Assembly: GCA_965211775.1 (NCBI GenBank)
Contig: OZ242974.1
Span: 4,442,188 to 4,506,187 of the forward strand
DNA: 64,000 nt
Reading direction: 5' to 3'
Source of the DNA: Candidatus Thiodiazotropha sp.
GTDB lineage: Bacteria > Pseudomonadota > Gammaproteobacteria > Chromatiales > Chromatiaceae
A model generated the notes under the pieces. The model worked only from the letters and a program-made list of their open reading frames with translations. It had not been told where the DNA came from and searched no databases. The translations under genes were made by a program, and so were the position numbers. Shown in pieces: positions 5,874 through 55,870 of the stretch (position 1 is its first letter; each line of letters begins with the position of its first letter).

Positions 5874-5891
5874 TAAACCATCCTCAATTAG

Positions 5892-6725: not shown

Positions 6726-6740
6726 TGAGAAACAGCTATA

Positions 6741-8672: not shown

Positions 8673-8836
8673 AATCTAAAAACCTCTTTATCAATCCCGT
8701 CATAGTGCGGGATCTAAATCATCCAAATCGGCATTTGCAGATCGGGGGACGGCTTTACACCATCCGGCACGGCCGATTTGTCAATAATACCCCGAAAAAA
8801 CCCTAATTATCTGTGCAAATTACTGATTTTTTGGAC

Positions 8837-33397: not shown

Positions 33398-33446
33398 TTC
33401 CAGATTTTGATAGGCCGGTTTGACTTGTGGGTCACATGTTTACCCA

Positions 33447-34862: not shown

Positions 34863-34919
34863 TGCTTCAAGCCAAATTCCTTGTATGAACAGCTGTCATG
34901 AATAGCTGATACATTCAGT

Positions 34920-39809: not shown

Positions 39810-39986
39810 TTAGTCCCGCTCCTTCTGACTTGACGTGGAATGAGCGCAGGAACCACATCCCGAGCAGTTGTCCGAGGACGCTTCTCTCTCAGGATCGAGT
39901 CTGTTCAACCACAATTGGAATACCACCCAGCCTGCACACAAGGCCACTAATCCCAATATGGCTGACACGTGTATCCACATGGTCAT
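39810..39986 (-). CDS. 58-aa single-TM Cys-rich membrane protein, translationally coupled to rnfA
   Basis: I hand-translated it as MTMWIHVSAILGLVALCAGWVVFQLWLNRLDPEREASSDNCSGCGSCAHSTSSQKERD. Its ATG overlaps the rnfA TGA (ATGA). It is not in the ORF track because it is under 60 aa. Confidence 0.55.
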   Translation of the reverse strand: MTMWIHVSAILGLVALCAGWVVFQLWLNRLDPEREASSDNCSGCGSCAHSTSSQKERD

Positions 39987-40561
39987 GCCGCACTGAACAA
40001 ACCGGCAAATCCCATGAATGCCATGGAGAGTATACCGGCAATAATCAGGTTCATGGCAGTCCCTTTAATCAGTCGAGGCACTTCCGCCAGCTCGGTCTCC
40101 TCCCGCAATCCGGCCATCAGCACCAGAGCCAGGGTAAAACCCAACCCTGCCCCCAAAGCATAGGTCATGCCCTGTATGAATCCATACCCTTTGTTGGTGG
40201 CGAAGATGGCCAGACCGAGAATCGCGCAGTTGGTGGTGATCAGGGGCAGGAATATCCCCAATGCCTTGAACAGGCCCGGACTCAGCTTTTTTATCACCAT
40301 CTCGATGAATTGAACCGTGCTGGCAATCACCACGATAAAACTGATCAACCTTAGATAAGGTGCATAAATCAGAATATAGGTGTTGAGCAGCCAGGCGCAC
40401 AATGCGGTAATCAGCATCACGAATATGGTGGCCAGGCCCAATCGGAAGGCGGTTTCCAATCGCTGCGATACGCCCAGAAAAGGACACAAGCCGAGAAAAT
40501 AGGCCAATACAAAATTATTGATTAGCAGGGCGCTGATGAAAATCCACACAAGTTCGTTCAT
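39983..40561 (-). CDS. rnfA: Rnf electron transport complex subunit A
   Basis: The 192-aa protein has NNFVL..FLGLCPFLGVS and LPLITTNCAILG. Confidence 0.93.
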   Translation of the reverse strand: MNELVWIFISALLINNFVLAYFLGLCPFLGVSQRLETAFRLGLATIFVMLITALCAWLLNTYILIYAPYLRLISFIVVIASTVQFIEMVIKKLSPGLFKALGIFLPLITTNCAILGLAIFATNKGYGFIQGMTYALGAGLGFTLALVLMAGLREETELAEVPRLIKGTAMNLIIAGILSMAFMGFAGLFSAA

Positions 40562-41217
40562 GGTGCTTCAATCTCCATCTGATCCAGTTGTTGCGCCAGT
40601 CTGTCCTTACGCTCTTTCAGCCAGTTGAAGAAAAGCAATAAAAGGCCCAAGGTGATGAAACCGCCGGGCGGCAGGATCATGATCACCCAGGGTTCGAAGT
40701 TCTCACTGAAGAGTTTGAATCCGAACAGCGCTCCCTCTCCCAGTAATTCACGAACCGCACCCAGGGAGAACAGGGCGAACAGAAAACCACTGGCCATGCC
40801 CAGCGCATCCACCAGGGCGAAACGTACCGAGTTGCGAGAAGCAAAGGCCTCCTGCCGTCCCAGGATCATGCAGTTGGCCACGATCAAGGGTATGAAGGCC
40901 CCCAGCTCTTTGTGGACCTTTGGCATCAGCGCCTCAAGGGTAAAGTCGGTGACGGTGACAAAGGTTGCGATGATAATGATATACGTGGAGATACGTACCT
41001 GTTTGGGTATCCAGTTTTTCAGTGATGAAACGAAAAAACTCGAGGCCACCAGCACAAAAAAAGTCGCCCCTCCCATAACCAGTGCATTCATCGCAGAGTT
41101 GGTGACCGCAAGCATGGGACACATACCCAGCACTTGAACAAAAACCGGGTTGTCGCGCCAAAGCCCCTTGATGAACTCCTGATAAGCGTCTTGTTTTTTC
41201 TCAGGCATGCTCTTCAC
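40558..41217 (-). CDS. rnfE: Rnf electron transport complex subunit E
   Basis: The ORF has VQVLGMCPMLAVT and IPLIVANCMILGR. It shares an ATGA overlap with rnfA. Confidence 0.93.
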   Translation of the reverse strand: MKSMPEKKQDAYQEFIKGLWRDNPVFVQVLGMCPMLAVTNSAMNALVMGGATFFVLVASSFFVSSLKNWIPKQVRISTYIIIIATFVTVTDFTLEALMPKVHKELGAFIPLIVANCMILGRQEAFASRNSVRFALVDALGMASGFLFALFSLGAVRELLGEGALFGFKLFSENFEPWVIMILPPGGFITLGLLLLFFNWLKERKDRLAQQLDQMEIEAP

Positions 41218-41235
41218 CCTGTTTGAACAATAATC

Positions 41236-41862
41236 CTAGAAACGCTGTAACCACTGCTGGTTCGCCTGGTTGATAATCCGCACCACCGCCTTGGAGGAGA
41301 TAGTCGCCCCGGTGATGGCGTCAACCTCGTTCGGCGCGGCTTTGGCGCCTCGCTTCACGGTCACGATTTCCGGTTCGACGGATAAGGCATCGAAATTCGA
41401 AACGAACTCGGCATCCTTGTAGATCTTGTCCCCCAGACCCGGCGTTTCCCGGCTCTCGAGTATCTCCATGCCGACCACTTTGCGCTGCTTAGGCTGATAG
41501 CCATAGAGCAATCGAATGGTGTCCTGGAAACCGGGACCTGATCCGGGAATGGCATACCCCACCAAAACACCTTGCGCATCTTGGCCGCCGAAGACGAATT
41601 CCTCACCCTTCCCGACCTCTTCCACCGGCGTCAATCGACCATCCCGGTAGACCAATCGCTGCAGTTGCGTGGAGCCGGGTAACACTTTGAATACCGCCTC
41701 CTGCAAAACCTTCGCCTTATAGGCGGTAATAGTGGGCAGGGTGGCTTCAAATACGGAAACGATGATCAGGCCGGATAGCAGTCCTGCAAAGCCAAGGGTC
41801 GCCACCAAACGGGTGGATCCGGGTTCACTGACCTTTATCTGTTGTCGGCTCTGCTGATTCAA
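41236..41862 (-). CDS. rnfG: Rnf electron transport complex subunit G (FMN-binding)
   Basis: It has an N-terminal TM segment, a C-terminal DAITGATISSKAV flavinylation-type motif, and lies between rnfD and rnfE. Confidence 0.88.
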   Translation of the reverse strand: MNQQSRQQIKVSEPGSTRLVATLGFAGLLSGLIIVSVFEATLPTITAYKAKVLQEAVFKVLPGSTQLQRLVYRDGRLTPVEEVGKGEEFVFGGQDAQGVLVGYAIPGSGPGFQDTIRLLYGYQPKQRKVVGMEILESRETPGLGDKIYKDAEFVSNFDALSVEPEIVTVKRGAKAAPNEVDAITGATISSKAVVRIINQANQQWLQRF

Positions 41863-41869
41863 CTGAATG

Positions 41870-42877
41870 TCACTCCTTGCCGAACACGCGGGGCTGAGTG
41901 TAGCGGTCGATCAGTGGCGTGGCCGCATTCATCAACAAGATGGCGTACATCACCCCCTCGGGAAAACCGCCGAAAAGCCTGATCAGTACAACCAGCAGTC
42001 CGATACCTATGGCGAAGATCCAGGCGCCGCGCGGGGTCAGGGGGGATGTAACCGGATCCGTCGCCATATAGAAAGCCGCCAGCAACAATCCCCCGGATAA
42101 CAGGGTGAATAAAGGATCCGGATACCGCGCTGTATCGATGGCGTAAAGCACACCCGAAAAGAGTGCTGCTGATAGCATGATGCCCACCGGGATACGCCAG
42201 TCGATATCGCGACGCAACAGCAGATAGATCCCTCCCGCCAGCAACAACACCCCACTGGTCTCGCCGATACAGCCCGCGCTATTACCCAACGCCAAATCGA
42301 CCAGCGGGGTCGGCTGCTGCTCGAATTTCATCAATCCCAGGGGGGTGGCTGCGGATACCGCATCGTAGTGGGGTTGCATGAATGGCAGTGCGAAGTTGGA
42401 GGGATACCACAACAGAAAGCCTTCACCGCTTGCCTGGACACTCCAGGTCGTCATGGCATTCGGGAAGGTCGCGAGCAGGAAGGCCCGCCCGACCAGAGCC
42501 GGATTGAACAGGTTGTGTCCCAGCCCGCCCCAGATCACCTTGCCTATACCAATGGAGACTACCCCACCGAGAAAAGCCATCCACAGCGGTAGCGCGGGAG
42601 GCAGGGTCAGGCCCAGCAACAGCCCCGTCAGCACGCCGCTGCCATCCAGCAGCCGCTGCCATCGCTGGTCTCCCGGGGAGAAGAGCCATTCTGCAAGCAC
42701 CGCCCCCAAGACACTCGCCACAACAACCAGAAGCGCTCCCAGACCGAACAGCCAAATTCCAGCCAGAGTGGCTGGCAACAACGCATACAGCAGATCCTTC
42801 ATGGTCTGAGCGGTTGTCATCTCCTGTTTCAGCAGGGGGGATGGCTGCACCAGTAATCTCGGATCCTTGTCGTTCAT
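41870..42877 (-). CDS. rnfD: Rnf electron transport complex subunit D
   Basis: The 335-aa polytopic protein of the NqrB/RnfD type has YMATDPVTSP. Its start overlaps the rnfC stop (TGATG). Confidence 0.92.
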   Translation of the reverse strand: MNDKDPRLLVQPSPLLKQEMTTAQTMKDLLYALLPATLAGIWLFGLGALLVVVASVLGAVLAEWLFSPGDQRWQRLLDGSGVLTGLLLGLTLPPALPLWMAFLGGVVSIGIGKVIWGGLGHNLFNPALVGRAFLLATFPNAMTTWSVQASGEGFLLWYPSNFALPFMQPHYDAVSAATPLGLMKFEQQPTPLVDLALGNSAGCIGETSGVLLLAGGIYLLLRRDIDWRIPVGIMLSAALFSGVLYAIDTARYPDPLFTLLSGGLLLAAFYMATDPVTSPLTPRGAWIFAIGIGLLVVLIRLFGGFPEGVMYAILLMNAATPLIDRYTQPRVFGKE

Positions 42878-44217
42878 CAGTGCCTGCCCCGTTTACCGCG
42901 CAGCTCACTTTTAGCGCTGCGTATCAGTTGCACGATGGGAATACCCGAGGGACAGGAGTAGGTGCACGAGCCACACTCCACACACTCCGTGACATTGGCC
43001 TGTTTGATCTGATCGAACTGACGCGCTCTGGCCAGACGGGCCAGTTTGGACGGATTGAGAAAATAGGGGCATGCCTCCACACACCGACCACAGCGTATGC
43101 AGGGGTACTCCTTAGGACGAGCTGTCTGTTCCGCGGTAAAGGCCAGTATTCCGGAGCTGGACTTGATGATCGGCGCATCCAGGCTGGCAATGGGAGTACC
43201 CATCATGGGACCCCCCATGAGTACCTCTTTGGTATCCTGCTTGAGCCCGCCGCAGAATCGAAGCACCTCCCGGACGGGGGTACCCAGTGGGACGATCAGG
43301 TTGGCGGGATATTCAATACCGGGCCCTGATACCGTCACCATGCGGTCGATATAGGGCATGCCGGACTCGAAATAGTCAGCGATAGCGACAAGGGTGCTGA
43401 CATTGTTCATGATGATTCCCATGTCCGCCGCATGCAGTCCCTTGGGTATCTCTACATTCAGCAGGGATTTGATCATCATTTTGGAGTCCCCCTGTGGGTA
43501 TTTGACCCTCAGGGGAGCCACACGGAACGGCTTGCCGGAGGGGATACGCCTATCCAGGGCCTCGATGGCGTCCGGCTTGTTGAGTTCGATACCGAGAATG
43601 GACTCCTCGGCCCCCAACAGGGTGTGCAGAATCTCGACCCCCCGCAGTAACGCCTCAGGACGCTCCACCATGATTCGATGGTCGTTGGTCAGATAAGGTT
43701 CGCACTCGGCGCCGTTGGCAATCAGGTGTTTGATCTTCACACCTTCACGCAAAGAGTATTTGACATGCGCGGGAAGCGAAGCCCCTCCCAGCCCCACGAT
43801 GCCCGTCTGTTGAATAACGGAAACCAAATCCTCCAGTGAAAGTCCCCGCCAGTCGGGCGGCTGCTCAACATTGAGACGCTGGGTGGCATACAGATCGGCT
43901 TCGATCTCGATGGCCTGTTCATATCGTCCACCGGGAAAACGCCGTCTACCGATGGCCTTGACCCAGCCGGTGACCGGGCTATGCAGACTGGCGGATACGA
44001 ATGCCCCGGGCTCGGCAATCAGCTGACCCCGCCCTACCTGTTGCCCTGCCTCCACCACCGCCTTCGCGGGTGCTCCCAAGTGCTGATGCAACGGCAGTAT
44101 GTAGCGCTCAACAAAGGGCATTCTCTGGGTATGCAGGGCGGCGGTCCGGTGCTTGTATTCCTGCGGGTGAATACCGTGTGAGAAGCTGCGTTTGAACAGT
44201 GTGGAGAGCGTTGGCAT
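42877..44217 (-). CDS. rnfC: Rnf electron transport complex subunit C
   Basis: It has two 4Fe-4S motifs (CIRCGRCVEACP, CVECGSCTYSCP) and a GGIHP-type N-terminus. The start is chosen at 44217 (MPTLSTLFKRSFSHGIHPQ), with an alternative ATG at 44253. Confidence 0.92.
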   Translation of the reverse strand: MPTLSTLFKRSFSHGIHPQEYKHRTAALHTQRMPFVERYILPLHQHLGAPAKAVVEAGQQVGRGQLIAEPGAFVSASLHSPVTGWVKAIGRRRFPGGRYEQAIEIEADLYATQRLNVEQPPDWRGLSLEDLVSVIQQTGIVGLGGASLPAHVKYSLREGVKIKHLIANGAECEPYLTNDHRIMVERPEALLRGVEILHTLLGAEESILGIELNKPDAIEALDRRIPSGKPFRVAPLRVKYPQGDSKMMIKSLLNVEIPKGLHAADMGIIMNNVSTLVAIADYFESGMPYIDRMVTVSGPGIEYPANLIVPLGTPVREVLRFCGGLKQDTKEVLMGGPMMGTPIASLDAPIIKSSSGILAFTAEQTARPKEYPCIRCGRCVEACPYFLNPSKLARLARARQFDQIKQANVTECVECGSCTYSCPSGIPIVQLIRSAKSELRGKRGRH

Positions 44218-44224
44218 ATTGTGT

Positions 44225-47200
44225 TTACTGCGCCGGTTCCCTATACCCGGCAAGCTTCAACAGACGCTCATGCACCGCTTTGCGGGTCTCCTGTTGGAGT
44301 TGATCGGTTAGGTCACTGATGCGTTGTTCATACTTGTCCGCCTGCATCTGCAGCGCCTCTTCATGCTCTGCAGCCACGGCTGCTTGCGCCTCCTCGCGCA
44401 CCCGTGCGGTAAACGGCGTCACCAGTCCCGCCAGCTCCTGCAGCATGCGCCATGTCCGTTGCCGCTTCTCGGTGATCTCCAGCAAATGCCTGTCTATACT
44501 GAAACGCCGGACCTCATCCCCCTGCCGGTTCAGTTCAACGTAAACCGACTCCTCTACTCTCTCCCCGGCTGACAGACCGAGATACTCAGCAAGCCTTACA
44601 GCTTCCTCGTCACGATTGAGCGGTGAAAAATAGCCACGGAAGCGTGTCTCGCCGAGTGCCCAATCGACAGGTGTATACACCCCCACCCCGGCATCTCTTA
44701 CCCACGGCTCCGTAAGCGCCGGATTGCCCTGCAGACTGATCCGGGAGCCGAACACGCCTTCCGCTTGCGGATCGTATCGGAACAGGGGGAAGAGTCGGCT
44801 CATCACTGCCGTCCGGGCACGATGCAGTGTCTGATCGGGTGCGAAACCGTGTCGCGAGGGGCTCGGGGCATGCAAGTGCACCAGCGCCGGACCCTTGTGG
44901 GCCAGGGCAGACTGGATGCATGCTGCAAAATGCTCCCTATCACTGATTGAGGTCTGGGCAATAAATGACTCCCGCTGAACGAGCGACAGCAGCGCCAGAT
45001 CGATAGCCACGTCATCCACAGAGGTCAGCGGCGACTCCAGACCCGTCCGTTCTGCAAGCCCCAGATCCAGGTCGGCGAGCAATACTGTTTTTATCGGCAG
45101 CTCACTACCCAAAACCCGGATCAGCTGGCCTAATCCGTGACCTGCCAGCTGACCGCTGTCGCCCACCAGCAGCAGGGTTGGACACAATGCTCTCTCTTCA
45201 TCATCGAGATCGCGCCAGGTCATTGTCTCGAGATCGGACCAGAGGCGCGCCGCATCCGCGGACTGTTCCAATTCCGCACGCGCCTTGCGCATCAGCACGA
45301 AACCTTCCGTCGCCTGCCGCAGTTGGCCCTCCAGCAGACCGGCGGCCAACTGTGCACCGTCACCTGTGGCATCGAGTGTGACGGGTGTTGAGAAAGGGTT
45401 GTGAGGAAAACTACCGGCCCAGCCAACCACTGCACCTGGTGAAAGCACAAGGCTTACCCTGGCGCGCCCCATGTCCTGACGTCCACTGCTGAGTCGCCAG
45501 GCGAGATCGATCAGGTCACGGGCCAGATCCACCAGGCGGCGTAATCGGGCTGCATCCACCTGATTGCTGATGGCATCCTCCGCTTCACCGATCAGGCTGC
45601 TCATGTCAGCCTGCCTCGCGTCGCTCTTTTCCAGGCCGCGTGAGAGTGCATCCAGGTCATCGGCAGGAAGGGCATCCGCCAATAGAGCGCAGATCGATCC
45701 GGTGATTTTTTCCCGGGTTGTCTCGACCTGTTGCAGAAACGACTCAAACCGCGGTGTCTGTTGAGCCTCGACAATGGCAAGTGCCAGGCGCAGCGCCAAT
45801 TTCGCCCCGCTTCCGGGTTCGACGCCATCGCCACCGGCCATCGCCAACCCTGCGCTGTGCGCCAGATGGGCGGCGGCCGCCACACCGACATGCGGATCCT
45901 CTGCCAGCCTGCGAATCGTATTCAGCTCACTGTCGGGCAACCCATGCCACGCCTTCTGAATCCGGCGCGCTCGGGATAGAGATTGGGTACTTTGCGGCAT
46001 GAGCTGCAACGCTTGCTCTCCACAGGCCTGAATACAGATTCCGCAACCCTTGCAACCATCCGGCTCCACGGCGAGCGCCAATAATTCACCACTCCCCCTG
46101 TTTTCTGTGTCAGGTTCAATGAACATGGGATTGGTGACGGCAACCTGCAGACTGCCCATGTCGCTTCGCAACTGCTCTATACCCTGCGCAATCGCTTGTT
46201 TGCGGTCTTGAGGAAAGGGCAGTTTCTCTTTGATCCCGTCATAACTGATGACAAGCATCTCTTCCAGTGTGGAATAGCCCGTCTCCTGCTGTCGACAGAG
46301 TGAAATAATAGCGGCGGCGAGTTTCGAGGCCACCGGTCTGAGCGCCTCGGCGCCACTGCACCGGATTGCGGCATCCATCAGGCGCGTGGGGGAAATCGAG
46401 ACGGCCTTGATGGCAGAATCGGGACAGGCGCACCAGCAGTCGCCGCATCCGGTGCATAACAGCGGATTGAATTGCGGCAGTTGCTTGCGAAACCTGCTCA
46501 GATCACGAAATCCCGCTGACAAGGGTGGTACGGCCCCAACCGCGAGATAGGGATCAGGCGCCAGTTCACCGCTCTTGCCCTGTTTATACAATACCCCGAC
46601 CTGATCCCAGAACCTGGGCAGGCTGTCATAGGCGTCATCCAGGCTTCCCAATCGGCGAACCAGGGCCGGGACTTCATCGCCGACATCCGAAATCGAGCGC
46701 GCCGGAACCAGAGGAAGACGTTTCAGGCTGATCTCCCTGACCTGATCCATGCCCCCTTCGAAATGCTGCAAACAGGCATCGACATCGGCCACTGACTCTC
46801 CCAGCAGCTCTTCACGCAGACTCAGCAGTCTACGCGGTGTCGTCGTCAACCGCTCAGTCTTGATCAATACGGCGGAAACAGCGCCTAACAGATATTCATT
46901 CGGCAGGGATCTGGATTCCTCTGTCGGGGCCACTCTAAACAGGCGTATCCCGCTTTCCCTGATGTGGGCGCGTGCCTCCCTGGGCAGCTGCGTCCAAACC
47001 GATTCATCGGGAAGCGCGCTCTGCACAAGCAGCGTTCCGCCCTTCGCGAGGCCATGGTGCGGCATCAACCGCTGCATGCCGGTGGTCGTCACCAGTATCG
47101 ACAGATCCACTGGGGCGTCGTCACCGGGATCTCTAAGTTCATCGCTGCAGAAGCTGATCCGATCGCTGCAGACACCGCTCCAGGATTTGCTGAACAACGC

Positions 47201-48805
47201 CGGTCGGCTACGCACGCCACCACCGAAGATTCGATGCAGGAAGGCGGCCGTTTCCACCAACAAGCCCTCTCCGGCCGCCCCCGACAATCTGTGCAGCGCC
47301 AGCGTCAGGGCGCCATCAGGCCGCAGGTCGGGTGAGACGGCTTCATCGTAGAGCCCCATCGACTCGAGCCCCGGATAGCTGCGGCGCAAACGGTCCAACA
47401 AGACCTGTCGTTTCGGATAGTCGCTGGATGTTTGAGAAAAGTTGATGCCCAGATAGACCTGCTGCTGTTTGATCCTATCCAGATTTCTGCACAGTGAAGC
47501 CAGATCCGAACCGCGCAGGGGAAGCCCGCCCAACCCATAGATGGCCGAGAGAAACCTGGGGCGCTGTTTATCGCTTATCGATGGATAGCCCGGATGCGCT
47601 TCGAGCCCGAACCGATGGTTTTCCGCGGCATGATCAAACGCACCACGCACCTCCCTCATCAATGGCGGGTCCGTTGCCAGCGGGACATCCATGCGCTCCA
47701 GTACGCAAACGCTGGCGCCGCCTGCGAGACAGCGTGCTATCTCTTTTGCGGGGAAGGGACGCAGACAGCGCACACCCAACACGCCAACCTTCAAACGGTC
47801 GCTGGCACGCAGATAGTCCGCCACTGCCTCGAGGACCTCTATTGCCGCACCCTGCGCCACCAGAATCAGTTTGGCGTCATCAACCCGGTAAGCTGAAAGT
47901 GATCGATATCGCCGACCCGTCTGTTCGGAAAAAAGATCAAAGGCATCATCAAGGCAATCCGACAGCGCATCGTCAAAGAAGACACGCCCCGACGCTTTGG
48001 CCTGCCCCCACACATCCGGGGCCTGAAGCCCACCCAGCATGACAGGCCGGTCAGGGTTATGCCAACGGGTTACCCGTCGGCGCGACTCACCCAGCAACAA
48101 CTGCTGCGCCGCGGTCGGGGATGCAATCAGATCATCCGGCCGCCCCAGGTAGCGCTCCACCAAGCCCGGAGGCGGCAGGCTGACCTCCTGCAGTGCCAGC
48201 GCTGTCTGTTCACCATCCATACCGACCAGGCCAGGCATCAGTGACTGCTCTGCTGCGCGTCGCACGATCAGGGAGAAATCCACCGCCTCCTGGACATTCG
48301 CTGCAATCAACTGGAAACAGCCGGAATCAGCTGCCAGATGAAAGGCTTCATGGCCACTGCCCAGCGCCGGTGCATGACCGGCAAGACTGCGTGCAGTGAG
48401 GTGTATGACCAACGGCAGCCTGAGACCGGCGGCGATGGTCAACAGGTCACTGCTGCGGGCCAGATCGGGCCCGGATAAAAAGCCGGTTGCCCGTACGCCG
48501 CTCATCGACATACCGATGCCGGCAGCCAGCACCCCACGCGCCCCTTCCGTTGACTGCATGCTGACAGGTGAACCGAGGAAATTCAGCCGTTGCTGCTGCA
48601 GTTCACTGCGCCAGGCCAGGTCAGCTGTCAGTGCCGGGTAGGATGCCCCCAGACCGGCCCCTTCACTGATTCCCGCTTCCACTACAGACACGGCCGTATT
48701 ACCGTCCAACAGTGTGCTGTTGCCCGCATAAGGACCCTGCGTGCGCGGGGGTGTCCCAAGCAGGCGTTTCAATAACCGTAAAGCCGAATTAACCAGTTCG
48801 GGCAT
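44225..48805 (-). CDS. very large pyruvate:ferredoxin-oxidoreductase (PFOR/NifJ)-like protein with degenerate TPP-binding motif, encoded inside the rnf operon
   Basis: It has a PFOR domain-I-like N-terminus (GNTAVSVVEAG...STEGARGVLAAGIGMSMSG...LPLVIHLTARSL), two Cys clusters (CTGCGDCWCACP, CKGCGICIQAC), and a domain-VI-like region LLLVGDSGQLAGHGLGQLIRVLGSELPIKTVLLADLD. It also carries the PFOR hallmark SRLFPLFRYDPQAEG and a coiled-coil C-terminus. The start is taken at 48805 (MPELVNS); the ORF is open to 48934. Confidence 0.75.
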   Translation of the reverse strand: MPELVNSALRLLKRLLGTPPRTQGPYAGNSTLLDGNTAVSVVEAGISEGAGLGASYPALTADLAWRSELQQQRLNFLGSPVSMQSTEGARGVLAAGIGMSMSGVRATGFLSGPDLARSSDLLTIAAGLRLPLVIHLTARSLAGHAPALGSGHEAFHLAADSGCFQLIAANVQEAVDFSLIVRRAAEQSLMPGLVGMDGEQTALALQEVSLPPPGLVERYLGRPDDLIASPTAAQQLLLGESRRRVTRWHNPDRPVMLGGLQAPDVWGQAKASGRVFFDDALSDCLDDAFDLFSEQTGRRYRSLSAYRVDDAKLILVAQGAAIEVLEAVADYLRASDRLKVGVLGVRCLRPFPAKEIARCLAGGASVCVLERMDVPLATDPPLMREVRGAFDHAAENHRFGLEAHPGYPSISDKQRPRFLSAIYGLGGLPLRGSDLASLCRNLDRIKQQQVYLGINFSQTSSDYPKRQVLLDRLRRSYPGLESMGLYDEAVSPDLRPDGALTLALHRLSGAAGEGLLVETAAFLHRIFGGGVRSRPALFSKSWSGVCSDRISFCSDELRDPGDDAPVDLSILVTTTGMQRLMPHHGLAKGGTLLVQSALPDESVWTQLPREARAHIRESGIRLFRVAPTEESRSLPNEYLLGAVSAVLIKTERLTTTPRRLLSLREELLGESVADVDACLQHFEGGMDQVREISLKRLPLVPARSISDVGDEVPALVRRLGSLDDAYDSLPRFWDQVGVLYKQGKSGELAPDPYLAVGAVPPLSAGFRDLSRFRKQLPQFNPLLCTGCGDCWCACPDSAIKAVSISPTRLMDAAIRCSGAEALRPVASKLAAAIISLCRQQETGYSTLEEMLVISYDGIKEKLPFPQDRKQAIAQGIEQLRSDMGSLQVAVTNPMFIEPDTENRGSGELLALAVEPDGCKGCGICIQACGEQALQLMPQSTQSLSRARRIQKAWHGLPDSELNTIRRLAEDPHVGVAAAAHLAHSAGLAMAGGDGVEPGSGAKLALRLALAIVEAQQTPRFESFLQQVETTREKITGSICALLADALPADDLDALSRGLEKSDARQADMSSLIGEAEDAISNQVDAARLRRLVDLARDLIDLAWRLSSGRQDMGRARVSLVLSPGAVVGWAGSFPHNPFSTPVTLDATGDGAQLAAGLLEGQLRQATEGFVLMRKARAELEQSADAARLWSDLETMTWRDLDDEERALCPTLLLVGDSGQLAGHGLGQLIRVLGSELPIKTVLLADLDLGLAERTGLESPLTSVDDVAIDLALLSLVQRESFIAQTSISDREHFAACIQSALAHKGPALVHLHAPSPSRHGFAPDQTLHRARTAVMSRLFPLFRYDPQAEGVFGSRISLQGNPALTEPWVRDAGVGVYTPVDWALGETRFRGYFSPLNRDEEAVRLAEYLGLSAGERVEESVYVELNRQGDEVRRFSIDRHLLEITEKRQRTWRMLQELAGLVTPFTARVREEAQAAVAAEHEEALQMQADKYEQRISDLTDQLQQETRKAVHERLLKLAGYREPAQ

Positions 48806-49652
48806 AACGGCTCTCACTCTGAATCCGTGAACGGGCCCGGTTTGCGAACTGGCCCCCTTCCAACCATTGAATGGCGCCGGTAGGACAGCGGTAGGTCGCC
48901 GCAGGTCGGGCCGGTCCACCCCCTGAGTAGTCAACGACCGGCAGGTTATCCTTCATGTGGATCAGACCGGGCGCCGCATCCGCCACGCAGCGCCCACAGG
49001 CATCGCACGCCGTGGTGCAGAGCGCCACCGCCATATCACCGGCAAGGGGCGCCATGCATTGTACGAAGAGATGCTGGCTCAACGGCACCAGTTCGAACAG
49101 ATCCCTTGGACAGACATCCACACAATCACCACAGGCGGTACACTGCTCGATATCGACCACAGGCAACCCGTTTGAATTGGTAGTGATCGCATTGAAGCTG
49201 CAGGCTCGCTGACAGTCACCGAGGCCGAAACACCCCCAGGAGCAACCTTTGCCGCCGCCGGAAACCACGGATGCCGCAAGACAGCTTTCGAATCCCCTGT
49301 ATTCGGCAATCTGGTATGCCTGGCCTTTCCCCCCGGCACAATGCAGTCGCGCCACCCGCTTCTCTTGCTGCCCCGGATCCACATCCAGCAGTTCAGCCAC
49401 GGCATCGATCGTCTCCTGGCTTGCTACAGTGCACTTGCTCGGTGATGTCGTGAGTTGCACCAGCTGCTCGGCAAATGCATGGCACCCCGGTTGCCCACAG
49501 GCGCCGCAATTTGAACCGGGCAGCAGATCCTCGGTCTCTTCGATCCGGGGATCCTCCTGCACTTTCAGAAATCTGTAGGCCACCGCCAGGATAACCGCAA
49601 AAACCAGACCGATGCCGGTCATGATGGCGGGTGCGATAACAAAGCTGTTCAT
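48789..49652 (-). CDS. rnfB: Rnf electron transport complex subunit B (polyferredoxin type)
   Basis: It has an N-terminal TM segment, a CGACGQPGC cluster, and several additional Cys clusters (CTACGDCVDVCP and others). Confidence 0.88.
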   Translation of the reverse strand: MNSFVIAPAIMTGIGLVFAVILAVAYRFLKVQEDPRIEETEDLLPGSNCGACGQPGCHAFAEQLVQLTTSPSKCTVASQETIDAVAELLDVDPGQQEKRVARLHCAGGKGQAYQIAEYRGFESCLAASVVSGGGKGCSWGCFGLGDCQRACSFNAITTNSNGLPVVDIEQCTACGDCVDVCPRDLFELVPLSQHLFVQCMAPLAGDMAVALCTTACDACGRCVADAAPGLIHMKDNLPVVDYSGGGPARPAATYRCPTGAIQWLEGGQFANRARSRIQSESRYARTG

Positions 49653-52171
49653 TGGTTGAACGGCGCCGCTCGTTCAATCAATGAGTCCAGATCGGGCTCA
49701 TCGTGATTGAGGGGCTTCCCAGGATGAATGCATTTCGCCGGACAGAGTTCAGCCGCCTGCACCAGCTGAGCATAAGTGGCATTGCCGAGATCCCCGAGCA
49801 TGGCCTGCTTCTCGTCGTTATAGATGAAGAGCTGCGGATTGATCGGCAGGCAGTCATTGCAACTGGTGCAGAGAGGGGTATCGATCCAGGGGTCGTCAAA
49901 ACTTAGGCTCTCTTGTTCTTCTTCATCAGGCGGCTCGCTCTCCTCGGCTTCCTCGCTCTGTTGTTCCGGCATCACTTCATCACTGCCCATGGCGACTGGC
50001 CCGGAGGGCATGTCGCCGCGACGCACCCCCCCCTCGACATCCAGGCCAAGCAGCACATCCGTGAGTCGCTGCATGGCCTCGCCGGCGGCTTCGTTTCTCA
50101 CCCGCTCCACCTCTTCGGCATGTGCAGCCTGTATGCGAACCAGCTCGTTGCTGGCCAGCTCACGCTCCTCCGCACGGGTTTTTTCCACCGCCATATCGAC
50201 ATAGCGGTTGCGCACGCCCGCCATCTCCTGCAGGGTGTGCCAATAGTTGAGGCGGTCACGGCAAGCCAGCGCGAGCTCTCTCGAGATCACCACGCGGTGC
50301 AGCATGGCGTTGCCGTCGATGGCCCAGACAAACGGCACCCGTCTATAGGCCTCCTCCGGGCTCATGGCCAGATAGTCCTGTATCGATAACAGCCCGTCTG
50401 AATCGCAGCCGGCCGGGATCAGTCGAAAGTGGTCTCGTAGACGCTCGATCAGCAGGGCGTAATCGGCAAAGGTGAATGCCAGTTCTGTGGTGACACTATT
50501 GCCGTTGTCATCCAGGTACCGAAACGGGTGCAAGGGCCAGTCCCGATCAGCCTGTGGATTACCGCTGAAATCCATCCGCACCGCTGCCGAATCGCCCGCC
50601 TCCGGGTTGATGCGGAAAAAGGGGTGGGCCCGGCTTTCGATGGCGGCGCCAGCCACCAACCAGGCATTCAGCGGAAGCAGTCTGCCGGGTGGACGCATGC
50701 CCGTATTGATGACATGCAGACTGGTGCGGGTGGCGTCCAAAGCCATCAGGTAGCACTTCAACAGGTGCTGATGCCGGGCAGCGGATGACTGGTCGACAAC
50801 GGCTTGACGATGACTGATGCCCAGATAACTCAATTCGGTCCGGTAACTCTTGAGCGGATCGCCATCGAGAGCGGCACCGGGATCGGCATGCGCCAACACC
50901 CGGATCAGAATCTGTACAGGCCGCCCCGAGCTGAGCAGCCGGGAAAAGGTACGCAATCCCTCGCCGGCCACCTGATCGGCCGATCCCAACGCGATCACCG
51001 AGGGCACCATTCGCAGCTCTTCTTGCGAAAAGGCCTCCCAGCTGAAATTGGCGAACCAGGGATCGTGAATCTCCGGGTTGTAGATGGCGTCGATCTCCAG
51101 CTGTGCGATACGCACCGCACTGTAGATCGAGGTCAGCTTCTCAGCCTCGCGATCGAATATCTCCATCGCTTTGGCGCAGGGATCATGATCGGTGATCTCC
51201 TGGCAGAAATCGACCTCCTGAAGCCAGGGATCGGTAAGCGTGCCAATGTGCAGAAAACGGACCAGCACCGGGTCGGGATGCCAACCTTGCATGATCTCCA
51301 GCGCATGTTCGATACGCTCGCGCCGCTCCTCTGAAATAGACCGGGTGCCCCGGGAATGATCCATCACCGCGGAGAGTATCACGGGGTCGAAGCGTTCACC
51401 GCCCAGGCCGACACTGTCTCGGGCCATCTTGGGTTCGATCGACTCATCGGATTTGATCCATTCGACTTCGAGGAGCTCCTTCAGGCCGCGTATGGAGGCA
51501 TCGATTCGCTCCTGAAAACGTTGTTGCATGTGGGTAAACTGACTGCGTACCGCATGAATCAGAAGATGGAGTGCGGGATAGCGGCCATAACCCAGCAGCT
51601 GGGCGCCTTCCGGCACAGACTGCAGCAACAGGTTCAGGTCATCTTCCAGTCTCTTTCTCTCCTGTTCATCGAGACCTAGATGCGTCTGTAGCGCGATGCA
51701 GGACTCCGCCAATGTCGCTCCGGCATCCACCGGGCCTTCGCGTTGCTGCAACGACTTGCGAATATGATGCTCCAGCCATGGCAGATGGTGTTTCAGAATC
51801 CTTGCCTTCCCCTCCTCCGGTGCATTGGCGGCCACGGCCTCCTGAAGCCATTGCACAAGGGGACAGGCAAGTTCTTCGGCTGTCTGATAGGTCTCTTCGG
51901 TATTGGGAGGAAAAAGGAACAGGGGGTAGTCATAGCGTAGCCTGGACGTATCGCGGTAGGGATCGAGCAGGGCCGGGAGATAGTCGTCGCCAATCGATTC
52001 CAACTGTGCCTTGGCCGCAGGATCACCCAGGTGGAAATGGCGCAGAAGAAACATCAACTCACGGGTTGCACGGGCATCCTTGACTGCCGTCGGCAGGGAT
52101 GGCACACGCCCCGATTCATTGCTGGGCAACTGGGTCGATTGCTCCTCTGCGGCCTTTTGTATCGTTGTCAT
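49649..52171 (-). CDS. 840-aa uncharacterised protein: PFOR domain-VI-like region, coiled coil, acidic linker and C-terminal ferredoxin-like domain
   Basis: It is a paralog of the C-terminal half of the 44225..48805 protein (VIALGSADQVAGEGLRTFSRLLSSGRPVQILI; SRAHPFFRINPEAGD; YWHTLQEMAG). The C-terminus is PLCTSCNDCLPINPQLF...AELCPAKCIHPG. Its stop overlaps the rnfB ATG (ATGA). Confidence 0.7.
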   Translation of the reverse strand: MTTIQKAAEEQSTQLPSNESGRVPSLPTAVKDARATRELMFLLRHFHLGDPAAKAQLESIGDDYLPALLDPYRDTSRLRYDYPLFLFPPNTEETYQTAEELACPLVQWLQEAVAANAPEEGKARILKHHLPWLEHHIRKSLQQREGPVDAGATLAESCIALQTHLGLDEQERKRLEDDLNLLLQSVPEGAQLLGYGRYPALHLLIHAVRSQFTHMQQRFQERIDASIRGLKELLEVEWIKSDESIEPKMARDSVGLGGERFDPVILSAVMDHSRGTRSISEERRERIEHALEIMQGWHPDPVLVRFLHIGTLTDPWLQEVDFCQEITDHDPCAKAMEIFDREAEKLTSIYSAVRIAQLEIDAIYNPEIHDPWFANFSWEAFSQEELRMVPSVIALGSADQVAGEGLRTFSRLLSSGRPVQILIRVLAHADPGAALDGDPLKSYRTELSYLGISHRQAVVDQSSAARHQHLLKCYLMALDATRTSLHVINTGMRPPGRLLPLNAWLVAGAAIESRAHPFFRINPEAGDSAAVRMDFSGNPQADRDWPLHPFRYLDDNGNSVTTELAFTFADYALLIERLRDHFRLIPAGCDSDGLLSIQDYLAMSPEEAYRRVPFVWAIDGNAMLHRVVISRELALACRDRLNYWHTLQEMAGVRNRYVDMAVEKTRAEERELASNELVRIQAAHAEEVERVRNEAAGEAMQRLTDVLLGLDVEGGVRRGDMPSGPVAMGSDEVMPEQQSEEAEESEPPDEEEQESLSFDDPWIDTPLCTSCNDCLPINPQLFIYNDEKQAMLGDLGNATYAQLVQAAELCPAKCIHPGKPLNHDEPDLDSLIERAAPFNQ

Positions 52172-52225: not shown

Positions 52226-53179
52226 TCAGATAGTGATTCGGTCCAACACTGCGTTGAAGCCCTCCAGCCTTTTCTCAGGCGTCATCTCCACACCCTGACT
52301 CGACAGATCCTCGTAACACTGGGCATCCGGGTTATGGTAAAGCAGTCCCAACGGCAGTCTCGCGGTGTCTGCTGCGAGCTGGAAGGCCCGGGCCAGATCG
52401 GAGGGATCGTGTTCCGTCCGATTGGGGAATTGACGGCTGACACTCTTGTCCACTGGAATTCCCCGCTGATGCTGCAACAGCAGGAACCGGTCCGGGTTCT
52501 GCTGCAGCTCCTTTGAAAAACTGTCCGCATAGACCGGGCAACGCTGAATAATGCGGACAAACCCAGTTCCCTTGTGTCGGTATGCGGCTTTTAATGTTTC
52601 GTAGAGTAAAGGGGGATTCCAGTCAGCCACCTGTGCCACGAAAGAGACGTTGGTAACACCCAGCGTTACCGTCAACGGATTATGCGGCTCGAGTATGGCG
52701 CCGAAAGGATGGGTGTTGGTCTTGAAGCCATGGGGGCTGGTGGGAGATGTCTGGGCCTTGGTCAAGCCGTAGATGGCATTGTCAAACACCATCAGAGTCA
52801 TATCCATGTTGTAGCGCAGAGCATGGATCCAATGAGCGGTGCCGATAGAAAAACAATCACCGTCTCCCGTCGCCACCCACACATCCAGTTCAGGCCGTCT
52901 GGCCTTGATGCCGCAGGCAACGGGCAGCGCACGTCCGTGCAGGCCGTGAAAACCGAACGTGCCGAGGTAATGGGGCATACGGCTGGAACAGCCGATACCG
53001 GAAACACATACGGACATCTCCGGCCGCTGCTGCTCGTCGCGCAAGACCTTTTGTGCGGCTGTCAGCACCGCATGATCACCGCAGCCGGGACACCATCTGG
53101 CCTCGCCGCCCGCATAGTCGCCCATGGTGAAATAGCGCTCAAAGACTTCGAGTGACCAGTCAGCTTTCAATCCGAACAT
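52226..53179 (-). CDS. korB: 2-oxoglutarate/2-oxoacid:ferredoxin oxidoreductase beta subunit (TPP-binding)
   Basis: It has WCPGCGDH and the TPP motif GDGDCFSIG...MVFDNAIYGLTKAQ. Confidence 0.9.
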   Translation of the reverse strand: MFGLKADWSLEVFERYFTMGDYAGGEARWCPGCGDHAVLTAAQKVLRDEQQRPEMSVCVSGIGCSSRMPHYLGTFGFHGLHGRALPVACGIKARRPELDVWVATGDGDCFSIGTAHWIHALRYNMDMTLMVFDNAIYGLTKAQTSPTSPHGFKTNTHPFGAILEPHNPLTVTLGVTNVSFVAQVADWNPPLLYETLKAAYRHKGTGFVRIIQRCPVYADSFSKELQQNPDRFLLLQHQRGIPVDKSVSRQFPNRTEHDPSDLARAFQLAADTARLPLGLLYHNPDAQCYEDLSSQGVEMTPEKRLEGFNAVLDRITI

Positions 53180-55080
53180 CAGCCCTCTCCTTGCAATGCT
53201 TCGAGTCTTTTTACGAGTTCATTCTTGATCATTCCCGGCTGCAGCGGGTGTCCATATACCACCGACCAGCAATCGATATCGATCAGGGTATGGGCGCGTA
53301 ACAGCAGGGCAAGCTGGGCATAACGGCGTGTCTCGTCGGTAATCAGGGGTGAACCGGGATCATCACTGTAGTTGATCTCCACCGTCATCACTTTGCGAAA
53401 ACCCTTGAATATCTCTTTCAGCCCGGGCTCCATGGGTAAAATAAAGCGAAGATGCAGGGAAGAGACTCGATGGCCGTCAGCACGCGCACGATCCACCGCC
53501 TCCTCAATGGCGCCAAGGGTTGAGCCCCACCCGACCACCAGCAGATCGCCGGAATCATCGCCGTGCACGACGGGGGGTTTCAGGGTACTGGCCAGGGCGG
53601 CAAATTTACGACTGCGCATATTCGCGCCGTGCTGGTTTGAATCGGAATCGTAGGCCACCTTGCTGTGGTTGGTGTGGGCAAGGCCGGTGAGGATGTACTG
53701 ACCACCCTGCATGCCCGGTACGGGTCGGGGGGAGAGCCCACTCTCCGAATCCCAATTGTAGGGAGGAATATGCTCATCCCAGTCCGATTGGTCGATGGGC
53801 GGCGCCATCCAGTCCAGGCTTGGCTCCGGTCTCTGGTAGGGTTGAACCCCGGTTGCCAGATTCGCGTCTGTCAGCAGTATCACCGGAGTTCGGAACGCTT
53901 CGGCAAGCCGTCGCGACATCACCACAAAATGCAGGCACTCCTCAATCGTGGCTGCGGCGATCACCACCTTGGGTGCATCGCCAGGCTCCCCGAAAAGCGC
54001 AGCCAGCAAGTCACCCTGCTCTACCTTGGTGGGCAGGCCGGTGGATGGGCCGCCCCGCTGCACGACACACACCACCAGGGGGAGTTCCGCCATCACCGCC
54101 AATGCCAGCATCTCTGTCTTAAGGGCCAGTCCCGGTCCTGAGGTGATGGTACAGGCGGTCTTTCCGGCAAACGAGGATCCAATGGCGAAACCGGCGGCGG
54201 CTATCTCATCCTCGGCCTGATGCACAAAGCCCCCAACCTCATGGTAGACATCCGCCAGGTAGTGGGATGCGGAGGTCGCCGGCGTGATCGGGTACATGGA
54301 AACCAGTTCCATACCGGATGCCATCACCCCGAGTCCCAATGCTGTATTCCCATTGGTGACGATATAACGCTTCCCCTCCCTGTCCTCTGCCGGCTGAGCT
54401 GGAACCTGGTAACTCAGACCCAGTCTCTCTGCGGCAAACCGGTAACCGGCGTCGAACAAGCGGTGATTCATGTCGATCGCCTTGTCGCCCTTGCGTTTGA
54501 AGGTGGTGGCGATCTCGCCTTTGGCAAGTTCCACATCCCGCGAATAGATACGGCACAACATCCCCAGCACGAACATATTCTTACCACGCCGGGGATTCGG
54601 CGTGATCTCCAGACAGGCCGTTTCAATCGGCAATTCGTGAACGATCAGGCCGTTTCTACGAAACTCGGCAACCGCCTTCGCATACTGCTCACGGATTTCA
54701 GGCACGCTGTCGTCGCGCCATTTATCCTCCAGCAGCACTTGGGTGCCCTCTTTGTATGCGCCGTTGACGATGCGTGAATAGAGAACCTGTTCGTTGAAGG
54801 CGACCACAATATCGGCTTCGTCGCCCATATTGGTAACCGCATGTGACGCCAGACGAATCCGGATACCGCTGGCGCCGGCCGGTGAGCGTGCGGGGGATTG
54901 AATCTCGGCGGGAATGATCTCCACCGTCCAGACACCATTGCCCATTCGGGCGGATACCGTGCCAAAGGTCTGGCCGGCTTTTTGTGCGCCTTCACCGGAG
55001 TCGCTGACGATCTCCACGATGTGCTCACGGGTTAGCGTCAACCTCGGAGCAAGCTCCTCGGCAGTTGTTGCATCCACCAC
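53179..55080 (-). CDS. korA: 2-oxoglutarate/2-oxoacid:ferredoxin oxidoreductase alpha subunit (gamma-alpha fusion type)
   Basis: The 633-aa protein has an N-terminal gamma-like domain (GEGAQKAGQ) followed by an alpha domain (MYPITPATS, QAEDEIAA). It overlaps korB by 1 nt. Confidence 0.9.
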   Translation of the reverse strand: MVDATTAEELAPRLTLTREHIVEIVSDSGEGAQKAGQTFGTVSARMGNGVWTVEIIPAEIQSPARSPAGASGIRIRLASHAVTNMGDEADIVVAFNEQVLYSRIVNGAYKEGTQVLLEDKWRDDSVPEIREQYAKAVAEFRRNGLIVHELPIETACLEITPNPRRGKNMFVLGMLCRIYSRDVELAKGEIATTFKRKGDKAIDMNHRLFDAGYRFAAERLGLSYQVPAQPAEDREGKRYIVTNGNTALGLGVMASGMELVSMYPITPATSASHYLADVYHEVGGFVHQAEDEIAAAGFAIGSSFAGKTACTITSGPGLALKTEMLALAVMAELPLVVCVVQRGGPSTGLPTKVEQGDLLAALFGEPGDAPKVVIAAATIEECLHFVVMSRRLAEAFRTPVILLTDANLATGVQPYQRPEPSLDWMAPPIDQSDWDEHIPPYNWDSESGLSPRPVPGMQGGQYILTGLAHTNHSKVAYDSDSNQHGANMRSRKFAALASTLKPPVVHGDDSGDLLVVGWGSTLGAIEEAVDRARADGHRVSSLHLRFILPMEPGLKEIFKGFRKVMTVEINYSDDPGSPLITDETRRYAQLALLLRAHTLIDIDCWSVVYGHPLQPGMIKNELVKRLEALQGEG

Positions 55081-55330: not shown

Positions 55331-55870
55331 TCACCACATCAAATCGTCAGGCACGATATAGTCGGCATAGGGATCGTCGCCATCATCCTGCTGTTCACGA
55401 TCATTGCGTACAACGATACAATCGCGGTTTCTCATACTGATTTTGTCTGCCACTGCGGTAGGGATGACGTCATAGCGATCATCTATCTTGACAATCGCCA
55501 GCCGCCCGCCGATCAGTTGGCCATGAATCTCGTCTGTGATAAGAATCCGCCGCACCTTGGCTTCGTCATTGAAATGGTAAACCACCTCGCCCTCCTCCAA
55601 CGAAAGACGATTCATCTCAATCAACTGCCTGATCTGGGCGGCAATCGCTTTTTGCTTCGCCTGCTCATTCTTTTTCTGATTCAGCGCACGATCCCGTTCG
55701 ACATCCTCGGCTTTCGCCTGTTTTGCCCAACGCACGGCTTGGTCTTCCGTTTTCTGCTTGCGATGCCGCTGCTCTTTCTCCCTGCGTTGTTTTGCCTTCT
55801 TCGCCTTGTTGACTTTGTTCTTGTCAGTTAAGCCGGCCTTGAGCAGCTGATCCTGTAGTGAGTTAGCCAA
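55331..55870 (-). CDS. DUF2058-family (YaiL-like) protein
   Basis: It has the N-terminus SLQDQLLKAGL.DK, a lysine-rich coiled region, and an acidic C-terminus ending DDLMW. Confidence 0.7.
   Translation of the reverse strand: MANSLQDQLLKAGLTDKNKVNKAKKAKQRREKEQRHRKQKTEDQAVRWAKQAKAEDVERDRALNQKKNEQAKQKAIAAQIRQLIEMNRLSLEEGEVVYHFNDEAKVRRILITDEIHGQLIGGRLAIVKIDDRYDVIPTAVADKISMRNRDCIVVRNDREQQDDGDDPYADYIVPDDLMW

Follow-up and report, generated by a model that had tools for sequence, protein, structure and literature searches.

We analysed T840, a minus-strand gene at positions 49649..52171 of a 64,000-nucleotide (nt) stretch of DNA from Candidatus Thiodiazotropha sp. (GenBank assembly GCA_965211775.1, contig OZ242974.1, positions 4,442,188 to 4,506,187 of the forward strand). 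This whole stretch is called the window in the following, and coordinates refer to it unless a locus of another genome is named. The open reading frame (ORF) starts with an ATG and its translation has 840 amino acids (aa). We propose that T840 is a non-catalytic adaptor or relay subunit, derived from a pyruvate:ferredoxin oxidoreductase (PFOR), in an electron-transfer module of a two-subunit 2-oxoacid:ferredoxin oxidoreductase (Kor) and the Rnf complex; the probability we give to this reading is about 0.6. A Ca. Thiodiazotropha protein with 100% identity to T840 carries no annotation beyond 'ferredoxin'; among genomes, Ca. Thiodiazotropha endolucinida gives the best match (98% identity).

Conservation in T840 peaks in the C-terminal tail, where column identity is highest in an alignment of 113 diverse homologues; this alignment underlies all conservation statistics given here. 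Residues 758-840 (49652..49900, minus strand) were assigned by Pfam and by sequence and fold matches to a single-cluster [4Fe-4S] ferredoxin domain. Pfam Fer4_13 matched residues 763-816 (E 8.6e-7; 30.0 bits against a gathering cutoff of 24.5), and D. africanus ferredoxin I matched the tail with E 3e-4 for the single sequence and 8.8e-6 with a profile. Foldseek aligned the modelled tail to the ferredoxin structure 1fxr_A over 59 columns with a template modelling (TM) score of 0.82 for the target and a root mean square deviation of 1.3 Å. Cysteines C768, C771, C774 and C810 are invariant in 113/113 homologues, and C814 is found in 102/113. The first-pass annotation of this DNA had described an acidic linker followed by a compact Cys motif that resembles a single-cluster ferredoxin; the translation contains both the acidic segment EQQSEEAEESEPPDEEEQE and the motif CTSCNDC...CPAKC, and the Fer4_13 score above cutoff, together with the match to ferredoxin I by sequence and by fold, agrees with that description. 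By motif, score and modelled fold the tail is a bona fide Fer4_13-type ferredoxin, and it is predicted to bind a low-potential [4Fe-4S] cluster. It has the CxxCxxC...CP single-cluster pattern and the fold in common with D. africanus ferredoxin I (1fxr/1dax; Fer4_13); however, the latter is a free protein of 64 residues, whereas the T840 ferredoxin is covalently tethered to a scaffold of 750 residues.

The tether itself comprises residues 709-757 (49901..50047, minus strand), a flexible acidic linker rich in Ala, Pro and Glu that is predicted to be disordered (predicted local distance difference test, pLDDT, <50 in AlphaFold2). Across the homologues the linker measures 41-77 residues (median 51), contains 23% A, 14% P and 13% E and has a median net charge of -9. 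It is preceded by a long charged helix rich in E, R and A (residues 656-708; 50048..50206, minus strand), which AlphaFold2 models as a single confident element of 53 residues with pLDDT ~90-97 and which may act as a stalk or a pairing helix; a homologous helix is present in P1569, a neighbouring paralogue described below. The first-pass annotation spoke of a coiled coil here. The helix stands, but a canonical coiled coil is not supported, as the hydrophobic periodicity at the heptad a/d positions is weak (0.33 in the core vs 0.24 elsewhere). Lipoyl domains of the E2 component of 2-oxoacid dehydrogenases are swinging-arm carriers on Ala/Pro-rich linkers. By analogy, T840 may be likened to such arms, with a small carrier domain on a long, flexible, charged Ala/Pro-rich linker that leads from a structural core; it differs from them in that there is no homology, in that an Fe-S cluster takes the place of the lipoyl group, and in that the mobility of the T840 arm is presumed.

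The scaffold was modelled with AlphaFold2 from 113 sequences (mean pLDDT 88.8, predicted TM score 0.80); this run superseded an earlier one with 29 close homologues, which had given a pLDDT of 63.5 and marginal Foldseek hits (E ~1e-3). Residues 187-655 (50207..51613, minus strand) form a body like PFOR domain VI, with the 'PP' fold of enzymes that bind thiamine pyrophosphate (TPP), as judged by hhalign, BLASTP and Foldseek. Foldseek searches with the model retrieved the M. thermoacetica PFOR 6ciq/6cin (E ~1e-6), the D. africanus PFOR 1b0p (E 1e-4), and oxalate oxidoreductase and beta subunits of PFOR and 2-oxoacid:ferredoxin oxidoreductases (OFOR; E ~2e-6). T840 has the PP-type fold in common with PFOR domain VI (6cin/6ciq, 1b0p) and with OFOR beta subunits (5c4i_C, 9bt4_C, 6n2n_B) over up to 436 aligned columns, and shares with them a conserved (Y/H)P(L/F)FR(Y/I)(D/N)P segment. 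A search of PDB sequences with the T840 family profile returned ferredoxin I only and no direct PFOR match, so the link to PFOR is drawn through intermediates and through fold comparison; Foldseek and a chain of sequences via P1569 and intact relatives both place the body with PFOR domain VI. The body has no model in Pfam or NCBIfam, and a scan of T840 against NCBIfam gave no match.

Alignment of T840 with its intact relatives revealed the loss of every cofactor motif of this body. The TPP motif GGDGAMYDIG of the relatives aligns to GSADQVAGEG in T840, and DTQVYSNTGGQ, the second part of the TPP/Mg motif, to RVLAHADPGA. The proximal-cluster CxxC of GDGACLGCGEKT corresponds to LLGYGRYP, NATGCTS is lost, and AVCPPEHG has become TGMRPPGR. 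T840 therefore has no GDG-x(~25-30)-N motif for TPP diphosphate and Mg2+, and all four positions aligned with ligands of the proximal [4Fe-4S] cluster are non-Cys. In the motif alignment both domain-V CxxCxxCxxxCP motifs are deleted from T840-type sequences, and Pfam found no POR_N, PFOR_II or POR domain in the chain. Among the homologues the former TPP-motif positions are variable and no conserved four-Cys set exists outside the tail; the best conserved of the remaining cysteines, C637 (75%) and C332 (65%), are not invariant. T840 is, on these sequence grounds, a catalytically dead PFOR derivative and no TPP enzyme by the usual criteria. As the TPP motif, the proximal-cluster ligands and the in-chain PYR partner are all missing, we did not file it as an OFOR; large helical insertions, the added helix, the tether and the ferredoxin set it further apart from PFOR domain VI and the OFOR beta subunits.

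The PP-domain fold and the adjacent genes that encode domain I could still argue for a catalytic, TPP-dependent beta-like subunit that borrows its PYR domain from KorA or P1569 and so builds a second active site. We disfavour this as very improbable, since GDG...N and the four proximal Cys are absent from T840 and not conserved in the 113 homologues, P1569 has lost the TPP motif and the proximal Cys as well, and hhalign of KorB, the beta subunit encoded next to T840, against T840 gave an E of only 0.22. An origin of T840 as a duplicate of the adjacent korB was likewise rejected on this value; the match of KorB to P1569 is also weak (E 0.025).

P1569 is a full-length PFOR-like paralogue on the minus strand, recognised by Pfam, by a PDB profile match and by its motifs. 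Its mechanical ORF (44225..48934) begins at a TTG at 48934, 146 nt within rnfB. Because its homologues have ~1526 aa and the family alignment begins at M44, translation probably starts at the ATG at 48805; the likely gene is then 44225..48805, with a 17-nt overlap with rnfB. BLASTP aligned residues 375-653 of T840 with residues 1237-1504 of P1569 (E 2e-16; 26% identity over 286 aa). Comparison of the two family profiles with hhalign (29 sequences for T840, 20 for P1569) extended this to residues 187-712 against 1034-1563 (probability 99.8%, E 3.6e-30, 495 columns). A more diverse T840 alignment added residues 63-186 against 800-926 (probability 91%, E 9e-7), so that T840 is collinear with P1569 from residue 63 to 712 (P1569 800-1563). 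The colinear similarity to the 1569-aa ORF on which the first-pass annotation had built is hence borne out: all three motif pairs that it quoted lie inside the BLASTP alignment, and the profile-profile comparison with the PFOR-like neighbour that it proposed as a check is statistically significant.

The same comparisons contradict its view that the N-terminal ~400 aa match no family, as residues 63-375 are collinear with P1569 and with intact PFORs. Residues 800-926 of P1569 are the start of PFOR domain V, and the cluster motif there is deleted in T840; by hhalign and motif alignment, T840 residues 63-186 (51614..51985, minus strand) are a remnant of this ferredoxin-like domain that is now helical. 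Since T840 is collinear with P1569 from residue 63 on, the part without assignment shrinks to ~60 residues. This N-terminal segment (residues 1-62; 51986..52171, minus strand) matched no family in Pfam or NCBIfam and no structure in a PDB profile search. Its residues 1-18 are predicted to be disordered (pLDDT <50 in AlphaFold2), and residues 1-30 show low conservation and many gaps among the homologues.

The P1569 family profile matches the M. thermoacetica PFOR 6cin across domains I, II, V and VI (E 1.9e-53), and no Pfam POR (domain III) match was obtained. P1569 resembles T840 in its terminal long helix and in having neither TPP motif nor proximal-cluster Cys. P1569 keeps domains I-II and both domain-V [4Fe-4S] motifs but has no tail ferredoxin, whereas T840 presents the converse. 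Databases list proteins of the P1569 type under '4Fe-4S binding protein' or 'pyruvate ferredoxin oxidoreductase'; with the TPP motif, the proximal-cluster Cys and the POR match absent, the latter name is probably wrong as to function.

A search of 1.8 billion cluster representatives showed that the T840 family comprises ~2000 clusters at 50% identity. Some members measure 1100-1565 aa and carry degenerate POR_N and PFOR_II domains in front of the T840 module, and the T840 orthologues of other phyla are full-length with degenerate PFOR domains I-II. A query with one such long form (P0207) led to four metagenomic PFORs of 1649-1728 aa (P0417, P0419, P0420 and P0421) that possess every PFOR domain, including TPP_enzyme_C, and in addition a C-terminal Fer4_13. 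BLASTP of T840 gave E 4e-79 for P0417, about 4e-75 to 4e-76 for P0419 and values down to ~3e-40 for intact PFORs, compared with only 1e-15 to 1e-17 for P1569. The intact ferredoxin-tailed PFORs are the closest relatives of T840 by sequence, collinear with it from residue 175 to 839, and have in common with it the domain VI-type body including a family-specific insert after the FRYDP motif, the helix, the linker, the C-terminal Fer4_13 and the setting in rnf operons. P1569 in turn is collinear with them over ~1500 aa (E 0).

The three types differ in their cofactor modules. The intact tailed PFORs keep domains I-III, the domain-V clusters (2 x CxxCxxCxxxCP), the proximal-cluster Cys (GDGAC(L/M)GCGEKT, NATGC, AVCPPEHG) and the TPP motif (GGDGAMYDIG...DTQVYSNTGGQ, with its GDG...N), all of which T840 has lost; the P1569 type has kept the domain-V clusters and lost the proximal-cluster Cys and the TPP motif. 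The tail ferredoxin is kept in the intact PFORs and in the T840 type but lost in the P1569 type. The intact tailed PFORs are presumably active enzymes, as their motifs indicate. They are encoded after rnfB and T840 before it: the genes of P0419 and P0420 lie between rnfB and rnfC, which is the slot of P1569 in the window, and so does the gene of a partly degenerate relative, P0418. In metagenomic contigs (L088/L089, 10001-14962; L090, 1327-6513) an apparently intact Fer4_13-tailed PFOR of 1650-1730 aa is encoded between rnfB and rnfC, an arrangement that suggests a tailed PFOR docked directly to Rnf. A partial gene upstream of rnfB in L090 was considered as T840-like and rejected, as it bears no likeness to T840.

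Since the closest relatives of T840 are intact tailed PFORs in rnf operons, the tail ferredoxin is probably ancestral and was lost by P1569, by parsimony and relative similarity. The position of identically tailed intact PFORs between rnfB and rnfC likewise points to a ferredoxin-tailed, Rnf-coupled 2-oxoacid oxidoreductase as the ancestral arrangement. The more parsimonious history would be that a tailed, rnf-embedded PFOR was duplicated, that the copies split the Fe-S modules between them and that both lost catalysis; the T840 copy in Gammaproteobacteria would additionally have lost domains I-III. T840 had been interpreted earlier as a duplicated and re-tailored module of its neighbour. The paralogy holds by BLASTP and hhalign, but not the idea that the C-terminal half of P1569 acquired a ferredoxin of its own, because the far closer intact PFORs are already tailed.

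In the window T840 comes third in an operon of ten minus-strand genes that spans ~15 kb. The first gene, korA (53179..55080), encodes the alpha subunit of a two-subunit 2-oxoacid (2-oxoglutarate):ferredoxin oxidoreductase (Pfam POR, POR_N and PFOR_II; TIGR03710 above cutoff), and its best solved relative is the 2-oxoglutarate:ferredoxin oxidoreductase (OGOR) of M. marinus (6n2n_A, E 2e-81). This M. marinus enzyme is said, from work of Chen et al. in 2019, to have one cluster per alpha-beta unit and to need an external ferredoxin. The beta subunit is encoded by korB (52226..53179; Pfam TPP_enzyme_C and PFO_beta_C), and its translation shows the cofactor motifs CPGC...C...GDG...N...C to be intact. 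A gap of 54 nt separates korB from T840, and the TGA of T840 overlaps the ATG of rnfB (ATGA). rnfB (48789..49652; Pfam FeS and Fer4, NCBIfam TIGR01944 above cutoff) is followed by P1569 and by rnfC, rnfD, rnfG, rnfE and rnfA (39983..44253; Pfam). T840 itself matched no Rnf family in Pfam or NCBIfam and is not homologous to the six canonical subunits.

Conservation of this gene order was analysed in a scan with one genome per species, in which a relative of T840 was found in 372 stretches and the context was read for the best 80. These 80 loci all belong to Gammaproteobacteria and include Sedimenticolaceae, Chromatiaceae, Thiohalomonadaceae, Thiomargarita, Achromatium, Woeseiaceae and Piscirickettsiaceae. 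The order korB-T840-rnfB is present in 66 of the 80; six loci are cut by contig ends and eight differ on at least one side. Beyond the 66, two loci have T840 with rnfB and the upstream side cut off. P1569 follows rnfB in all 63 loci with enough DNA. The complete ten-gene order korA-korB-T840-rnfB-P1569-rnfCDGEA, with a long T840 orthologue, recurs in one Acidobacteriota, one Riflebacteria and one Polyangiaceae (Myxococcota) genome, so that the operon is conserved across four phyla. The long orthologue of the Riflebacteria genome (P0176; L086, 4398-9095) contains two CTSCxEC motifs (residues 1399 and 1494) that point to a tandem pair of tail ferredoxin domains.

With the 66 of 80 loci, the three other phyla and the ATGA overlap, T840 is encoded within the rnf operon and co-inherited with it. 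A decaying duplicate without function, for which the lost catalytic motifs and the loss of domains I-III in Gammaproteobacteria might be cited, is effectively refuted by full-length in-frame conservation in 372 species genomes and ~2000 clusters at 50% identity, by the invariant ferredoxin cysteines and by an operon position that is held across phyla. The context also fits the electron shuttle between Kor and RnfB that had been put forward in the first-pass annotation; the shuttling as such would be a property deduced from this context.

A rather doubtful alternative is that T840 is a general ferredoxin adaptor for Rnf whose tethered Fe-S domain would feed or drain RnfB on behalf of several soluble partners, with its linkage to Kor reflecting co-regulation only and no physical relay. 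It would be in line with the ancestral ferredoxin-tailed PFORs in rnf operons without korAB, with the translational overlap of T840 with rnfB and not with korB, and with the persistence of T840 where it is unlinked from kor. Against it speaks that korAB lie immediately upstream in 66/80 genomes and in three other phyla, and always upstream of the degenerate forms in the few contexts examined; even the partly degenerate P0418 has korAB upstream. By comparison, the TPP motifs of P0419 are intact, and the 10 kb upstream of its gene contain no korAB. As intact TPP motifs go with the absence of korAB and degenerate motifs with their presence, these few contexts suggest that Kor replaced the lost catalysis. 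On the P0418 contig, where the rnf-embedded PFOR keeps its ferredoxin tail and part of the TPP motif, the T840 slot between korB and rnfB is occupied by a gene for a 331-aa protein without a Pfam match (8148-9143), which could represent a transitional form or some adaptor without relation to T840.

Several observations weigh against T840 as a dedicated subunit of a Kor-Rnf module. In Thiocystis, two Thiorhodococcus and two Thiomargarita genomes T840 is separated from korB and rnfB; in Thiocystis the detached gene still shares a 38-kb contig with kor and rnfB-P1569-rnfCDGEA. In one genome (L004, 9632-12837), next to a DDE transposase, only remnants of korB (110 aa) and rnfB (103 aa) flank a T840 homologue that is itself intact. 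T840 was thus retained there after the operon had been broken up, which suggests that it can be kept without korB and rnfB as neighbours. The putative pairing helix has no clear heptad pattern. Finally, where the TPP motif used to be, an acidic/Asn pattern is weakly kept (E/D at 396 in 66/113, N/D at 430 in 74/113), so that the body might still bind a ligand.

These partly kept residues would suit a regulatory or sensing pseudoenzyme. Such a protein would gate Rnf or Kor, through a metabolite (2-oxoacid, CoA or nucleotide) in the dead PP-fold pocket or through sensing of redox state or O2 by the cluster, instead of carrying the bulk of the electrons. The body is well conserved and confidently folded despite its missing cofactor motifs, and three distant lineages have hemerythrin genes upstream of the operon. 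We consider such a role unlikely, because the most conserved element is a ferredoxin of the low-potential CxxCxxC...CP type on a long tether, as is typical of a mobile carrier, and because no ligand-binding motif was identified in T840.

For T840 as a relay between Kor and Rnf, we infer the following physical assembly, contact partners of the ferredoxin domain and direction of electron flow. The T840 body, which would no longer bind TPP or a proximal cluster, would serve as a scaffold and probably pairs with the pseudo-PFOR P1569, as a relic of the PFOR dimer. The rigid helix and the flexible acidic Ala/Pro/Glu linker of ~50 residues would carry the [4Fe-4S] ferredoxin domain, which could swing between the surface-exposed cluster of KorAB (in KorB) and the Fe-S chain of RnfB and P1569. 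The tethered domain would thus take the place of a free soluble ferredoxin for KorAB, which have no ferredoxin domain of their own. In a sulfur-oxidising autotroph the likely direction would be from NADH, with the ion-motive force, through Rnf working in reverse and the tethered ferredoxin to KorAB, which would reductively carboxylate succinyl-CoA to 2-oxoglutarate; the oxidative direction is mechanistically equally possible. More tentatively, and at somewhat less than even odds, KorAB, T840, P1569 and RnfABCDGE may constitute one membrane machine that descends from an ancestral Rnf-docked tailed PFOR. Such a machine would be an ion-motive-force-driven NADH:2-oxoglutarate synthase and, in reverse, an energy-conserving 2-oxoglutarate:NAD+ oxidoreductase, in which two pseudo-PFOR scaffolds and a tethered ferredoxin channel low-potential electrons without free ferredoxin.

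No description of the T840 family, of rnf-embedded ferredoxin-tailed PFORs or of the ten genes as one operon was found in the literature searched. The sole related item found was a passing 'PFOR-like' label in a study of the Riftia symbiont (PMC11636981); the gene so labelled is presumably of the P1569 type. There, 'PFOR-like' and dimeric korAB fall together, along with nirB and glnL, under sulfide limitation (PMC11636981). This pattern, which is only a hint, would fit 2-oxoglutarate being supplied for nitrogen assimilation at times of ample energy. Rubin-Blum et al. 2019 (PMC6315080) described dimeric korAB as common in gammaproteobacterial autotrophs and discussed Rnf, and made no link between the two through proteins of the T840 or P1569 type. 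In the sources searched, T840-type proteins bear the names 'ferredoxin' or 'hypothetical protein' only. T840 is probably a PFOR-superfamily pseudoenzyme and Rnf/Kor accessory whose characterisation is absent from the literature searched. Owing to the database names, metabolic reconstructions may miscount P1569-type proteins as pyruvate synthases.

How electrons at about -500 mV are delivered to oxygen-sensitive 2-oxoacid synthases in (micro)aerobic chemolithoautotrophs, which include many animal symbionts such as Ca. Thiodiazotropha and Ca. Endoriftia, is an open problem. The operon ties an OGOR without ferredoxin to Rnf via two Fe-S-bearing pseudo-PFORs, one of them with a tethered ferredoxin, and points to a hard-wired, leak-protected route from NADH and membrane potential to CO2-fixing or anaplerotic 2-oxoglutarate synthesis. 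A physical Kor-Rnf supercomplex, if true, would be a substantially new system, and T840 would be a clear case of an enzyme turned into an electron-transfer scaffold. A further outcome is a class of intact PFORs, unstudied in the literature searched, that are encoded inside rnf operons and carry an integral ferredoxin tail.

Further genes were recorded in the neighbourhood of T840 homologues. Just before korA, a hemerythrin gene is found in the Acidobacteriota operon (L085, 2537-3010), in the Polyangiaceae operon (L091) and in the P0418 operon. The Polyangiaceae locus encodes a rubrerythrin besides the hemerythrin (6346-6801, 5726-6211) and has a V-type ATPase cluster; the hemerythrin and rubrerythrin neighbours may be linked to oxygen sensing or protection. 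An RnfC-like gene (~24% identity, ~300 aa), absent from the window, was found ~0.5-6 kb upstream of korA in Thiohalomonadaceae, Piscirickettsiaceae and Sedimenticola loci (L039, L041, L046, L055, L067, L068, L077, L081 and L082). In Thiorhodococcus mannitoliphagus (L003, 13326-15713) the detached T840 homologue is followed by a 795-aa ORF without a Pfam match.

In the window the operon is bracketed by transposase genes, an IS200-like one (Y1_Tnp) upstream (56003-56431, plus strand) and one of the IS1595 family downstream (38383-39321, minus strand). Between korA and the IS200-like gene there is a DUF2058 gene (55331-55870). On the minus strand at 18234-37295, a type I secretion cluster with a C39-peptidase ABC exporter (34920-37295) and HlyD (33447-34862) adjoins genes for several RTX-repeat proteins, including giants of 1932 aa (21861-27659) and 1183 aa (18234-21785). 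The GC content is 0.43-0.49 around 26-32 kb vs 0.55-0.61 in the operon.

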